A DNA stretch of 64,000 bases. Origin: Eledone cirrhosa. Taxonomy: Eukaryota. Made by a program: the position numbers and the translations under genes. Where the stretch lies: the NCBI GenBank assembly GCA_964016885.1, contig OZ024742.1, positions 354,578,001-354,642,000 on the forward strand, in the 5' to 3' direction. The notes under the pieces were generated by a model. The model did not search any database. It saw only the letters and a list, made by a program, of their open reading frames with translations, and had not been told where the DNA came from. Below are positions 3,186 through 62,912 of this stretch, piece after piece. The stretch's first letter is position 1, and every line of letters starts with the position of its first letter.

Positions 3186-3255
3186 TATATATATATATAT
3201 ATATTAATTAAATAATGAATAAACAAAGAAACAGTTCCTTATATTAAAAAAAATT

Positions 3256-3395
3256 CATCATTTTACGATCGTTTCTAGGATATATATGTGTTAGAGTTGG
3301 TATGCATATTCTATAGATCTATGTACACTATTTATACAAACTATCAGAGGGAATATACATAACTACACATATATATGCTGTCTTCAGAAATAATG
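3256..3395 (-). ncRNA. Type I hammerhead with ~105-nt stem II
   Basis: Inverted copy of 5341-5480 with intact CUGAAGA and GAAACGAUCGUA. Confidence 0.72.
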
Positions 3396-4621
3396 ATATT
3401 TGTTTATTGAAAAAAACAAAGATTCAATACAATAGGTCTGTTTGGGAACAGGTTTTGAATTGACCAATAGAGAGATCGGGAGGGTCAGGATAGTAATATA
3501 GTAGTAGAAGAACCGTAAATTATGGGTAGAGGAAGGTATATTTCAGTTTTAAATGGAAAAGAATATTATGAATGAAGGATTATTTTAGGGAAGAAATAGG
3601 TCTTATGCTGACCTCAGAAATAATTTTATTTTTTCATTGAATAAAACCAACAAAGATCTAATATATACTGTCTGTTTTGTAAGAGGTTTAGAATTAACCA
3701 ATAGAAAGTTATTAATTGACCAAATGGTAAAATATTAGTAAGTGAAGCTTATTTTAGGGGTGAAAATAGGTCAGGTGGTCAGTAAAATGTATACAAGCAG
3801 TTGCTGTTATAAAATAGTAATGCCAATACAAATATCTAAGGTGACTAAAGTTTTAGGGTAAGAATGTTAGTGAAAAAAATACATCTATGAAAAAATATAA
3901 ATTAATTTAATTGATGGGTATATTTATATTGATAAAATTATAATACATATAGATATGATAAGTAAGAGTTAGATGCAGTTGAAAAGTGCTGTTAAAGATG
4001 AGGGGAAATTAAAAGAATATAAAAGTAATATATATATATATATATATATATATATATATATACACTTATATATATACATATATATACATATACATACACA
4101 TACACACACACACATACACACATACATATATATACATATACATATATATACATATATATATATATATATATATATATATATATACATAGATATATACATG
4201 CATATATACATACATACACATACATATACACACACATGTACACTTAAATATACATATAATTATTGGGGGGGGATTACATTTATTAGTGAGAAATAGTAAA
4301 TATATATAGTTTTCAAGGAACATAGAGTCATAACCTGAAGTTAAAGCATTATATATGTTTACTTAATGGTATCAGTTTTAGGAAATTATATTTGTAAGAA
4401 GGAAAGCAAAATTATGTAGTTCATCAGTAGTAGAATATTAATTATAGGTTAACTAAATTAAAAATAGTTTATATATTAATTTCAAAAGTGTATATTAATT
4501 AGGTTTATAATTTTTAAAGCAGAATCATGTAGTTCATCAGTAGTAGAATATTAATTATAGGTTGACTGAATTAAAAATAATTTATATATTAATTTCTAAA
4601 GTGTATATTAATTAGCTTTAT

Positions 4622-5099
4622 AATATTTACAGGTTTTACTCAGTTTATGATTACACGATATTATTAATTCCTGTCGCTTATTTAATACGATATCCTTAGA
4701 TTTCATTACTTCAAAAAGTTCTTGGGAACATAATCTACATTCATTTCTACTATTTTGATAAGGGGTGGCCCTTTTGAGCACACTCCAGGTCAGGTCATAT
4801 TCTATATTCCTCTTTCTATAACTATTTATTATTTAGGCTAGAGATGTTGTATTAGCTAGTGCGGCATTTTCAAAACTATGTTTGTGGGTATTGAATCTCA
4901 CCTTAAATTTGTTAGAGGTAGCTCCTATATATGAATAAATTGAGTCCTTAGTGTTAACTTTACATTTATATACTATGTTATTAACAAGGCAACTTCCTTT
5001 TAATGGACAGTTTGCTTTGTTTCTACAGTTACAACTTTTCGTGAATCCTGTATCTGAGGAGATATTATGGTTAGTTTGATGTACTGGTGGTACACTCAT
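4622..5099 (-). pseudogene. Penelope-type GIY-YIG endonuclease, interrupted by a stop
   Basis: CNCRNKANCPLKGSC-NIVYKC-YIGATSNKFKVRFNTHKHSF; after the stop at 4833 continues WSVLKRATPY..CRLC..LNKRQELIISCNH. Confidence 0.88.
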
Positions 5100-5340
5100 G
5101 GTTTTTTTACATATATTTCTGAGGTCAGCATAATACCTATTTCTTCCCTAAAATAATCCTTCATTCATAATATTTTTTTCCATCCAAAACTGAAATCTAC
5201 CTTCGTCTACCCATAATTTAAGGTTCTTCTACTACTATATTACTATCCTGACCCTCACTATCTCTCTATTGGTAAATTCAAAACCTGTTCCCAAACATAC
5301 CTATTGTATTGAATCTGTGTTTTTTTCAATAAACAAATAT

Positions 5341-5480
5341 CATTATTTCTGAAGACAGCATATATATGTGTAGGTATGTATATTCCCTCTGATAGTTTGT
5401 TTAAATATTGTACGTAGATCTATAGAATATGCATACCAACTCTAACACGTATATATCCTAGAAACGATCGTAAAATGATG
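5341..5480 (+). ncRNA. Type I hammerhead with ~105-nt stem II
   Basis: CAUUAUUU-CUGAAGA-[long imperfect hairpin, e.g. GUAUGUAUAUUC/GAAUAUGCAUAC]-GAAA-CGAUCG-UA-AAAUGAUG; 8-bp stem I. Confidence 0.72.
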
Positions 5481-5849
5481 AATTTTTTAAAATATCAGGA
5501 ACTGTTTCTTTTTTTATTCATTATTTTCTTAATTTACCTTGACTCTGTTTTCCGTTTATTTTTCACCTAAAGTAGTTTTTGAATGCATCTTCTCTTTTCA
5601 TGATATCCCGATTACATTGAGTTCTTCATACGGATTGGACACTACCGTAAACTTTTGGTAGATTTATCTACATATATATATATATATATATATATTGTTA
5701 TACTTTGGGAGGTTCATGTTGCCAATAAGAAACACACGCACCAGTTGCTTTCACTTCAATTTATTATATATTTATGAATTTACAAATTTATAAATTTTTA
5801 AATTTCTGGTTGGTTGGTTGGTTCCACAACCAGATAGTTGTTTATATAT

Positions 5850-5894
5850 AGTCATAGTCCTTTCGTCACACACTCTGTGACCTCTTCAGTGACT
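5850..5894 (-). ncRNA. Minimal type I hammerhead ribozyme (pLTR)
   Basis: Inverted copy of 6003-6047. Confidence 0.78.
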
Positions 5895-6002
5895 GGGGAT
5901 TCCTTTCTTTGTCTCCGTGCTTCTCCTTTGTTCTGTCCTACGCCATTTTGTTTCTGAGAAACAAAATGGCGTAGGAATCCCCAGACAAAGAAAGGAATCC
6001 CC

Positions 6003-60090: not shown

Positions 60091-60824
60091 TATATATACA
60101 TATATATAAGTTGAAAAATAATGAAAACGAAATTTCATAAGTAAGTGCCATACAAAGAGTGGGAAATGAAATTTCGTTTTCATTTTTTTTCAACTTGTCG
60201 TTTTCGGTATGTCTGACCGATTTAACTCACTCAATATGCAAATTAAGGCTGCTCAGCCGTTAATTTTCATAAGGAAATTATATACTTTCGAACGTTCAAC
60301 TATCTGGCAGATGGGTAAACGGTACTGTTGATAGCTAACAAGCTTGAAACTAGTACATCGTTCCTGTGTCAGTGTTGAACAAAAAGGTGACGTGGTTGCC
60401 TTAACACCGTATGGCATAAATTCAGGCTGTTCAGTTTGTTTACAAACGAACAAAGCGGCGTTATAATAAGCGTCCGCTAAACTGATGCGTGCATATATGT
60501 ATGTGTACCTGTATATATATATGTATATGTGTGTATATATATATATATATATATATATATATATATATATATATATATGTGTGTGTGCATGCTACTGTAC
60601 GTCTGTTTACATATACGTATGTACGTATACATACATACTTACATTTAAGTAAGTGCCATAGAAAGAGTGAGAAATTAAATTTCGTTTTCATTTTTTTTCA
60701 ACTTATCGTTTTCGGTATGCCTGACCGATTTAACTCACTCAATATGCAAATTAGGCTGCTCAGCCGTTAATTTTCATAAGGAAAGTATATACTTTCGAAC
60801 GTTTAACTATCTGGCAGATGGGTA

Positions 60825-60869
60825 AACGGTGCTGATGATAGCTAACAAGCTTGAAACTAGTACATCGTT
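60825..60869 (+). ncRNA. Minimal type I hammerhead (family A)
   Basis: AACGGUG-CUGAUGA-UAGCUAACAAGCUU-GAAA-CUAG-UA-CAUCGUU; the copy at 60325 has a mutated core CUGUUGA. Confidence 0.86.
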
Positions 60870-61316
60870 CCTGTGTCAGTGTTGAACAAAAAGGTGACGT
60901 GGTTGCCTTAACACCGTATGGCATAAATTCAGGCTGTTCAGTTTGTTTACAAACGAACAAAGCGGCGTTATAATAAGCGTCCGCTAAACTGATGCGTGCA
61001 TATATGTATGTGTACCTGTATGTATATATGTATCTGTGTGTATATATATATATATATATATATATATATATATATATGCATGCTAATGTACGTCTGTATA
61101 CATATATGTATGTACGTATACATACATACTTACATTTAAGTAAGTGCCATACACAGAGAGAGAAATGAAATTTCGTTTTCATTTTTTTTTCAACTTATCG
61201 TTTTTGGTATGCCTGACCGATTTAACTCACTCAATATGCAAATTAGGCTGCTCAGCCGTTAATTTTCATAAGGAAAGTATATACTTTCGAACGTTCAACT
61301 ATCTGGCAGATGGGTA

Positions 61317-61361
61317 AACGGTGCTGATGATAGCTAACAAGCTTGAAACTAGTACATCGTT
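61317..61361 (+). ncRNA. Minimal type I hammerhead (family A)
   Basis: Same sequence as 60825-60869. Confidence 0.86.
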
Positions 61362-61724
61362 CCTGTGTCAGTGTTGAACAAAAAGGTGACGTGGTTGCCT
61401 TAACACCGTATGGCATAAACTCAGGCTATTCAGTTTGTTTACAAACGAACAAAGCGGCGTTATAATAAGCGTCCGCTAAACTGATGCGTGCATATATGTA
61501 TGTGTACCTGTATGTATATATGTATGTGTGTGAATATATATATATATATATATATATATATATATATATATATATATATTTATATATATATATATATATA
61601 TATATATATATATATATATATATATATATATGTGCATGCTACTGTACGTCTGTATACATATATGTATGTACGTATACATACATACTTACATATATATATA
61701 TATATATGTATATATATATATATA

Positions 61725-62635
61725 TATATCATAAATCATGTTCTTAGAATTATTAGATAAAATATATACCATTTCCTCTCCCAATTAGCATAATTAACCA
61801 TATAAAAGTCAATTAGACCAGGCTATAAGAATAATGGATCCTATGTAAAAATGTTCGACAAATAACTGAAAGCGGCCTCTTCGCGGTGATCCCAATAGAG
61901 TAATTATCCAACATTTCAACAGCATGTAGAAACTGACTTAATATACCGTCAACCATACACAATTATGTGTAAATTTAAACTTAGAAGAAACGTGTACATA
62001 CCGTAATTATATCTCTACCATGGTTTCGTACCTATTTTTAGATTTCCTATTGTTAGGATGTTTCCAGAGTAACAGACACATCAGGAGAAAGCTCAAGATT
62101 GAACAGTTAATTTTCCGAAGCGATCCCCCCAAAATAGATTTAAAAATGGCTAAGAATCGTGACGTGGCAGTGGTCAAGTTAGAAAGAATGTGATTAGTTG
62201 CTTACGGCGCGTGGGCTTGTTGCTAGAAAGCGCAGCCCAATATCGCCCAATTGTATCTCAACCTAACGGGAGATTATTAAATATAAAGATTTACATATAC
62301 ATAAAGTCATAGATATATATGTGGCAACCGGTTACGTTGTGGCTCAATGAAGAATTAATGAATTAAATAATCAGAGCAATATATCATAAATCATGTCCTT
62401 AGAATTATTAGATAAAATATATAACATTTCCTCTCCCAATTAGCATAAATAATTTTTTATATGGTTAATTATGCTAATTGGGAGGGGAAATGGTATATAT
62501 TTTATTAAATAATTCTAAGGACATGATTTATGATATATTGCTCTGATTATTTAATTTATTAATTCTTCATTGAGCCACAACGTGACCGGTTGCCACATAT
62601 ATATCTATGACTTTGTGTATATGTAAATCTTTATA
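61725..62635. repeat. Partial tandem with terminal inversion, between (TA)n tracts
   Basis: 61725-61790 is repeated at 62381-62448; 62283-62448 is mirrored at 62468-62635. Confidence 0.75.
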
Positions 62636-62691
62636 TATATATATATATATATATATATATATATATATATATATATATATATATATATATA

Positions 62692-62912
62692 GTTAGAAAG
62701 TGAACAACACAAAATATAACTACTCCATTACCAAAGGTTTCTGAGATCACGGACGATAAAAATATACATCTGGGTCGTTCGTCAAACAGAGATGTTATAT
62801 CTCTGCTGTAACATCTCTGTCTGACGAACGATCCAGACGTATATTATTATCGCCTGTGATCCAGAAACCTTTGGTAATGGAGTATTTATATTTTGTGTTG
62901 TTCACTTTCTAA
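62692..62912. mobile_element. Mini palindromic HHR insertion
   Basis: 62692-62797 is approximately the reverse complement of 62809-62912. Confidence 0.85.
62815..62882 (+). ncRNA. Type I hammerhead ribozyme
   Basis: CUCUGU-CUGACGA-..GAUC...GAUC..-GAAA-CCUUUGG-UA-AUGGAG; the mirror copy has UUGACGA. Confidence 0.7.

Follow-up and report, generated by a model that had tools for sequence, protein, structure and literature searches.

Endonuclease-bearing (EN+) Penelope-like elements (PLEs) leave insertions of an unusual shape. According to the available parts of two accounts (PMC3846280; PMC8557442), an inverted copy lies at the 5' end of the element, the pseudo-long terminal repeats (pLTRs) reach over the start of the open reading frame (ORF) and carry a hammerhead ribozyme (HHR), a tail is optional and confined to one end, and a bias towards (TA)n is seen in the clades with a linker. 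The mechanism behind the adjacent inverted 5'-truncated copy, the one-sided tail and the (TA)n bias in PLEs was called undefined (PMC8557442), and for EN+ insertions with inverted 5'-truncated pLTR and tail self-priming by antisense RNA was proposed (PMC3846280). In Schistosoma, PLEs with dual minimal HHRs on opposite strands, 100-700 bp apart and with palindromic helix III, were described (PMC4209133), in the accessible text without orientation or target. In the present study comparable head-to-head insertions were analyzed in a stretch of 64,000 nt of Eledone cirrhosa (contig OZ024742.1; assembly of 3.0 Gb), hereafter called the window, which is AT-rich and contains very many (TA)n runs.

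Three further systems are close enough to be compared. The Penelope protein PAc (Poseidon, green anole) cleaved and extended both strands in vitro and preferred AT-rich DNA; two adjacent start sites of reverse transcription in the ORF start delimited the tail, HHR cleavage was dispensable and a dimer was predicted (PMC11167929, as far as available). Non-LTR retrozymes are non-coding tandem units of ~300 bp with a type I HHR, for which a derivation from Penelope was proposed in the accessible parts of PMC7229834 and bioRxiv 10.64898/2026.07.22.740005. Twin priming of L1, summarized as unvalidated in the available text of PMC10760644, likewise involves a second priming at the target site and central joining, with 3' ends outward.

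With a probability of roughly 0.6, we read the insertions in E. cirrhosa as EN+ PLEs and non-coding HHR derivatives of them, placed head to head in (TA)n, where reverse transcription is started from the two 3' ends left by an endonuclease cut, at two different fixed sites of the RNA. Usually one arm ends at what is here called the short site, and the long end of the other arm extends 57-170 nt past it as a tail. Tails of the described EN+ PLEs measure 30-40 nt in the parts of PMC3846280 and PMC8557442 at hand, and here the layout dominates the genome in dozens of mostly non-coding families, for which coupling of the ends and asymmetry of the arms were counted. As described for PAc in the available text (PMC11167929), priming involved neither homology nor a strand-specific start, whereas here a TA match of 3-5 nt is found at the short site and each insertion uses one site of either kind. 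Compared with the retrozymes, the array in the window is a divergent double with short and long ends in (TA)n. In L1, the arms are free of overlap and the internal position of the second primer varies, whereas here the two start sites keep fixed positions 30-170 nt from each other and the arms overlap as a rule. Twin priming of the L1 type was rejected, since the second site does not vary and 22 of the 28 cleanly mapped junctions show overlapping arms; only the geometry is alike.

HHRs were searched for with a type I descriptor (CUGANGA, GAAA, palindromic helix III, UH, helix I), which is blind to a helix III of more than 12 nt and to decayed cores. In the window its strict form gave 27 matches at a score of at least 8 as compared with 0 in 20 shuffles, and 33 matches were obtained when a long helix II was allowed. 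Among the 150 listed of the 281 matches of an Rfam scan of the window no hammerhead family was present; these 150 were driven by simple repeats and lay below the gathering score. The outside sample comprised 160 stretches of 10 kb, taken in even steps from 11 contigs of the same genome (1.6 Mb), and contained 165 HHRs as compared with 2-5 in shuffles. A family with a helix II insert of 101-116 nt (window 3264-3387 and 5349-5472) forms the second commonest descriptor class (11 of the 165 sampled).

For 14 inverted pairs of the window it had been noted that the left copy lies on the minus and the right copy on the plus strand, which was borne out in 14 of 14 by self-BLAST and partner mapping; 13 of them are inverted repeats of the same family. 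The units concerned are:

1924..3184: pair 1984/3121, head to head, core CAGAAGA, no helix I; the short site ends both arms.
3205..5671: pair 3256/5341, head to head; type I HHRs intact, helix II of 105 nt; the left arm ends short, 59 nt from the cut, the right one long, at 199 nt.
5696..6264: pair 5850/6003, head to head, pLTR only, of a Neptune-like family; left short end, right 57-nt tail.
6357..7351: unit 6658/7200, head to head; left arm a partial tandem, left outer boundary set by hand.
7533..7864: pair 7573/7678, head to head; left short end, right tail of ~84 nt.
15156..15670: complete long/short pair; HHR at 15347-15309 on the minus strand and 38-bp inverted partner at 15633-15670.
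15671..16022, plus strand: unrelated HHR element, core 15873-15946; likely a later stacking at the right flank of the pair 15156..15670.
16468..18731: head-to-head unit holding 18411-18660; ~1.8 kb interrupts the left arm, HHRs decayed.
25404..25765: pair 25448/25600, head to head; left arm with full HHR and short end at TA, right arm a 3' half plus tail with no TA after it.
31233..31522: pair 31304-31515, palindromic; core decayed, GAAA-palindrome half intact, left tail of ~70 nt.
31660..32013: pair 31738-32012; HHR at 31882-31962 on the plus strand, left tail abutting (TG)n.
33439..34082: pair 33538/34040; HHR at 33570-33541 on the minus strand with long end, right arm decayed.
54791..55030: pair 54873/54889, CAGAAGA family; left short end, right tail.
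55192..60091: divergent tandem arrays of retrozyme type, 310-bp unit; 9.5 units on the minus and 6.3 on the plus strand; left short end, right tail of ~30 nt.
62692..62979: pair 62723/62815; HHR at 62821-62876 on the plus strand; left short end, right tail of ~67 nt.

Units of the same layout beyond the 14 pairs are:

7883..8092: head-to-head short/long pair of a very abundant family with long palindromic helix III.
24723..25178: inverted pair, one end at TA, the other with an 87-nt tail; no HHR detected.
61729..62631: nested inverted unit, bounded by TA; no HHR detected.

That an HHR or its remnant gives the orientation held for most of the pairs only. Judged by core, helix I and helix III, a full type I hammerhead is predicted on at least one arm in 10 of the 14 pairs, and in 18411-18660 and 31304-31515 it is decayed on both arms. 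The other two, 1984/3121 and 54873/54889, belong to one young family, each of whose 14 top genomic copies reads CAGAAGA in the core, not CUGANGA, and is devoid of helix I, and which is classed as not a canonical HHR; its orientation is still divergent, judged by its short and long ends. Pair 15302/15868 consists of two unrelated families and is more likely to represent two stacked insertions, because at 15633-15670 there is a 38-bp inverted partner that belongs to the left element. The expectation that most outer ends abut (TA)n agreed with 24 of 28 window ends (hand-set boundaries), the others being 25765 (no repeat), 31660 ((TG)n), 34082 ((CT)n, then TA) and 54791 (T-rich spacer of ~20 nt). 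An opposite layout was seen at window 9535-9781, where inverted arms surround a central (TA)52; no HHR was found there, nor a second copy in the sampled DNA. Among sampled inverted repeats, 14 of 242 have TA at both inner ends.

The rule that pairs are divergent and that no convergent pair shares one insertion was carried over to the outside sample with a homology probe, applied without a filter on short downstream matches and with partners within 4 kb. All 43 same-family insertions were divergent and none convergent (p=2e-13); they derive from 50 probe rows, all divergent, of which seven are extra matches inside four of the insertions. The absence of convergent pairs lacking TA in between is nearly automatic once 3' ends abut TA, but the count of 43/43 is independent of that. 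Adjacent HHRs on opposite strands within 3 kb were divergent in 24 and convergent in 2 cases for the same family; same-family convergent neighbors at loci L103 and L159 were rejected as a TA-separated pair of different subfamilies and as a nested insertion with its own inverted partner, respectively. Neighbors of different families were divergent in 7 and convergent in 12 cases, the latter all separated by TA. The six close pairs among the genomic matches to the protein region of the Neptune-like family were likewise all divergent. The orientation rule is hence genuine, but limited to same-family pairs, and, judging by the available parts of PMC3846280, PMC8557442 and PMC4209133, it is already published and not new. 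In a comparison of HHR 3' ends with (TA)n, TA followed within 230 nt 3' of the cleavage site in 123/160 cases, as compared with 39/160 on the 5' side and 16.7% for random positions, as predicted.

The two outer ends of an insertion are of different kind. In well-sampled families the distance from cleavage site to (TA)n takes two discrete values, e.g., 45-56 and 132-155, 60-66 and 198-209, or 167 and 227. One short and one long end were combined in 27 of 31 HHR-anchored pairs with no TA between the arms and both ends resolved (p=1.7e-5 against a ceiling of 50%), a count that omits L054, all TA-separated rows and four unresolved insertions. The same combination was found for 14/15 partners at loci selected by their tail, at 6/6 long-arm loci and at 4/4 resolved full-length loci. 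Beyond HHRs, 242 local inverted repeats were sampled; in 151 of them an outer end lies at TA, and the other end is then 40-170 nt away from TA in 92, 0-12 nt in 14, 13-39 nt in 7 and more than 170 nt in 38. At least 37 end families share the head-to-head layout. In the Neptune-like family the 57-nt tail corresponds to the ORF start (window 6180-6260 equals aa 1-27), and its short and long ends (L194:2045-2376; window 5696-6264) coincide with two copies of one short AT-rich motif that occur ~57 nt from each other in the ORF start. In 8 of 37 end families, as compared with 0.18 on average and at most 3 in shuffles, a hairpin, ACTC...GAGT, begins just inside the tail, 3' of the short start site, the motif having been noticed in the data before the test; window 7783-7864 and 26335-26412 are examples, the Neptune-like family is without it, and it is a candidate for a signal bound by the reverse transcriptase (RT).

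Template past the short junction runs in phase with the TA run over a mean of 3.6 nt (54 rows) as compared with a background of 0.46. A (TA)n target present before insertion, as had been proposed, is supported by single-arm copies, in 15 of 63 of which TA is found no more than 6 nt from the apparent 5' end as compared with 3.2% at random; a few of these rows are duplicates, and many of the 'far' ones are alignment ends. TA was likely there beforehand, because the 5' junction is unprimed. A target-site duplication is unreadable within (TA)n, as the element ends lie in the TA run.

The suspected Penelope origin found support through one family with RT and GIY-YIG in one ORF, pLTRs and an inverted copy. 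An autonomous element has the 5850/6003 family as its pLTR, which includes the ORF start and contains a type I HHR with weak helix III. Locus L194 holds a full-length copy with direct pLTRs of 332 nt (2045-2376 and 6126-6457) and an inverted copy at its 5' end. At L213, an ORF of 1270 aa shows DKS, YVDD, a CX4CxxC linker (aa 1144) and a GIY-YIG-type motif, whose core has two internal Cys, with His residues downstream. The whole protein gave no Pfam match at E<=0.01; its C-terminal 598 aa gave weak matches to RVT_1 at E=8e-5 (below the cut-off) and GIY-YIG at E=9e-5 (above the cut-off). Copies of the RT-endonuclease region are 97-100% identical, and 71 of 73 scored have no internal stop. The best named homologue of a resident retroelement protein is an RT protein of Octopus vulgaris (66% identity). 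By the motifs given in PMC8557442 (CX2-5CxxC linker, C-terminal GIY-YIG with CCHH) the family would be Neptune/Nematis-like. For this family, the Hydra clade, with CxCX5C linker, DKT and no CCHH, was ruled out by these motifs, and Naiad/Chlamys, with N-terminal endonuclease and no canonical HHR, by the C-terminal endonuclease and the HHR. Several hallmarks of EN+ PLEs are present in it, namely an ORF with RT and C-terminal GIY-YIG, pLTR repeats, an inverted 5'-truncated copy, a one-sided tail and the HHR. Two relatives lie in the window, the second of which matches the 5850/6003 family with its 3' end:

18773..23089, plus strand: decayed, nearly full-length Penelope-like element; RT and C-terminal GIY-YIG, 57% aa identity to the intact family; direct pLTR repeats 18773-18901 and 22969-23089.
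51317..52616: 5'-truncated Neptune-like element on the minus strand (51317 to ~52537) and the 83-nt end of another family, head to head; candidate mixed-family junction.

In the decayed ORF of the former, a long Asn-rich stretch lies upstream of RT (window 19620-20170), of which the intact relative has a run of 7 Asn only; N-rich inserts are known in rotifer Penelope families (PMC3846280, available part).

The unit 55192-60091 is, by its structure (310-bp period, 15 type I HHRs), identified as a non-LTR retrozyme. Full units are identical across both arms in 13/13 and differ by 2-3 nt from arrays in L084 and L159; its junction at 58120-58156 carries templated 11-nt duplications. Another tandem HHR family, with a unit of 456-492 bp that contains (TA)n, occurs at window 196-1149, 50019-50657 and 60138-61694, and beside it a 33-bp inverted piece at 60106-60138.

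The course of events would be as follows. The GIY-YIG domain would cut both strands of (TA)n. Of the two DNA ends, one would prime at the long site and its counterpart at the short site, where 3-5 nt of the TA primer would probably pair with AUAU of the RNA and so assist the start. Synthesis of each cDNA would continue up to a stall or, close to the pLTR start, up to the RNA 5' end, and the cDNAs would then be joined centrally. A protein dimer on one RNA, as a hypothetical step, would explain why one short end is coupled to one long end. The hammerhead would be a passenger that marks orientation, with cleavage usually setting neither end, although it may supply circular templates for tandem arrays. 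In its most specific version, a single RT-endonuclease dimer would cut (TA)n and serve each strand from its own fixed site on one RNA, the TA primer being paired with a short AUAU patch next to a conserved hairpin. Dozens of non-coding HHR families would make use of this machinery and, by extrapolation, would have placed ~10^5 inverted repeats in the genome; we hold this version tentatively, at slightly less than even odds.

What decides between two primers and a single folded product is the shape of the junctions. These were mapped in 55 short/long segments, ~16 of them the source of references (five long/long rows of the same mapping represent one family with internal TA), and 28 junctions, all outside the window, were clean. 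Inner junctions had been described as ragged 5' truncations, which applies to a part of them: the arms end within 20 nt of each other in 16, the short arm reaches at least 20 nt further in 9 and the long arm in 3. In 6 of the 28 the overlap is 8 nt or less or lacking, and in 5 of these the long arm consists of the tail only and has no sequence in common with the short arm. Extra 5' sequence on the short arm amounts to ~310, 730 and 1980 nt in L191-L193, where arms are 95-99% identical, and to 417 nt in L217; window pair 5850/6003 was dropped as a clean case of a longer short arm, its palindromic centre being rearranged. If instead one cDNA or antisense RNA snapped back to a hairpin, as in the proposal of PMC3846280, with the second end cut at the short site and ligated and the centre later deleted, the same-source arms and the single tail would be accounted for directly, and the lack of a spacer in 38/92 short/long inverted repeats, the 16/28 junctions within 20 nt and small fold-back pieces at some junctions (L026, L022) agree with this. 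Yet fold-back predicts a short arm contained in the tailed arm, whereas the short arm was longer in 9 versus 3 junctions and 5 long arms were tail-only, and the short-arm excess of 310-1980 nt in L191-L193 would require repeated one-sided deletions, so that we consider it unlikely, while keeping it as the strongest competitor. Since under fold-back all sequence of the short arm should recur in the tailed arm, the asymmetry of arms favors independent priming, and the predicted priming from both DNA ends with central joining is the likeliest route, favored without proof.

Dual priming could also be performed by two RNA-protein particles on two RNAs, usually of the same source locus. This would suit the usual overlap of the arms, which a single RNA could yield only if strands were displaced or if the template were tandem or circular, and mixed-family junctions would be its occasional visible outcome; TA-free candidates, inspected as individual cases only, are window 51317-52616, L022, L043 and L054. 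Such cases are rare, and all of them can equally be read as later stacking at a TA edge, as seen at L003, L198 and window 15670. Start sites of two particles should moreover be independent, yet 27/31 pairs combine short and long, and mixed-family neighbors show no divergent bias (7 vs 12), which makes this version rather improbable. The diverse pool of RNAs that had been postulated does not agree with 16 Neptune-like pairs either, in which arms differ by 2.2% within and 3.9% between pairs (permutation p<1e-4) and share diagnostic subfamily variants, exceptions being an 8-nt repeat that differs inside two pairs and one pair that ranks 9th of 16; gene conversion between the arms might also be a source of their similarity.

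In its strong form, the original prediction goes further, in that breaks arising spontaneously in (TA)n would be patched by the Penelope RT with any ribozyme-cut RNA available. At least 37 end families with one layout, the break-prone nature of (TA)n and the junction at 7128, where the left arm of unit 6658/7200 begins exactly at the cleavage site, speak for it. Identical tandem units, too, fit a circular HHR-processed template as described in the accessible part of PMC7229834. Ribozyme-processed templates are nevertheless at odds with the inner ends: out of 46, a single one is found no more than 8 nt from the cleavage site, 41 are situated upstream and 14 are grouped at the pLTR start ~100 nt upstream (at loci mostly chosen for carrying HHR and tail). 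They are also at odds with the CAGAAGA family, which builds the same structures; since inner ends are so rarely at the cleavage site, templates were mostly uncleaved. The arms being of the same subfamily, the start sites fixed and family-specific, and the family without canonical HHR alike, patching is highly improbable. Neither are breaks needed where endonuclease-region copies are abundantly intact (71/73), a Penelope protein cuts both strands itself (PMC11167929, available text) and (TA)n targeting was reported for PLEs with a zinc-finger linker (PMC8557442, likewise). Independent insertions in a shared hotspot or assembly artefacts, to which stacking of elements in the same TA runs (12 convergent neighbors of different families, all TA-separated) and the 100% identical array at 55-60 kb, which could be homogenized by polishing, might lend some color, are refuted for same-family pairs by the orientation bias of 43 vs 0, arms that are 90-99% identical (10th-90th percentile) and hence aged, short/long coupling and subfamily concordance, and we give them next to no credence.

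Several points weigh against priming at two fixed sites, the reading preferred here. The 16/28 nearly symmetric junctions fit fold-back equally; long palindromes lose their centres after insertion, and fold-back with later deletion of the centre could thus mimic the arm asymmetry. Like ends occur in 4/31 pairs and also in 1984/3121 and L013, and rows of the counts are pseudo-replicated by family. The TA match could alternatively be an endonuclease motif in a DNA intermediate. An autonomous partner was identified for one family only (5850/6003). A search for empty alleles by joining the flanks of 117 insertions returned two uninformative rows, and public contigs and restriction site-associated DNA (RAD) reads on window 24240-26400 and 30300-34300 contained no bridging record. 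For window 25404-26300, a search for public RNA data containing the stretch listed none, a result that carries no weight as to expression. In the available text of PMC11167929, finally, priming proceeded without primer-template homology and from the same start site for both strands.

Other repeats of the window were recorded alongside. At 34173-37432, an unrelated 5'-truncated RT element on the minus strand with frameshifts, an HHR-like core at ~34260-34290, (TA)n at both ends and no inverted partner probably represents another Penelope-type family. An uninterrupted frame of 1093 aa with RVT_1 and zf-RVT at 43766-47047, between (GAA)n/(AAT)n runs, resembles what we take to be a Dong/R4 non-LTR element. 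A dispersed repeat of ~190 bp on both strands, extremely deep in public runs (13162-13338, 17132-17295, 18111-18311, 28028-28215, 29105-29651, 32197-32392, 47934-48653, 62986-63130), is presumably a tRNA-derived short interspersed element. Outside the window, L054:51-5407 is a mirror palindrome of 5.4 kb of a composite region with several HHR families, 97-99% identical arms and a small HHR-family hairpin at its centre.

In the literature searched, with supplements and subscription papers outside its scope, coupled short/long priming was not found for Penelope, and in the available text of the O. vulgaris annotation (PMC13282606) hammerheads are not mentioned. Added here are the counted short/long coupling, the arm asymmetry and the TA match at the short site. 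The formation of inverted ends and tails is open according to the accessible part of PMC8557442, with one protein studied in vitro, and the counts give predictions that separate dual priming from the published idea of self-priming. If true, a dimer working at two sites of one RNA would account in one step for microsatellite targeting, the head-to-head layout and the confinement of the tail to one side. The ~150 TA-anchored local inverted repeats per 1.6 Mb are suggested to be products of Penelope, which bears on the repeat annotation of cephalopod-type genomes.

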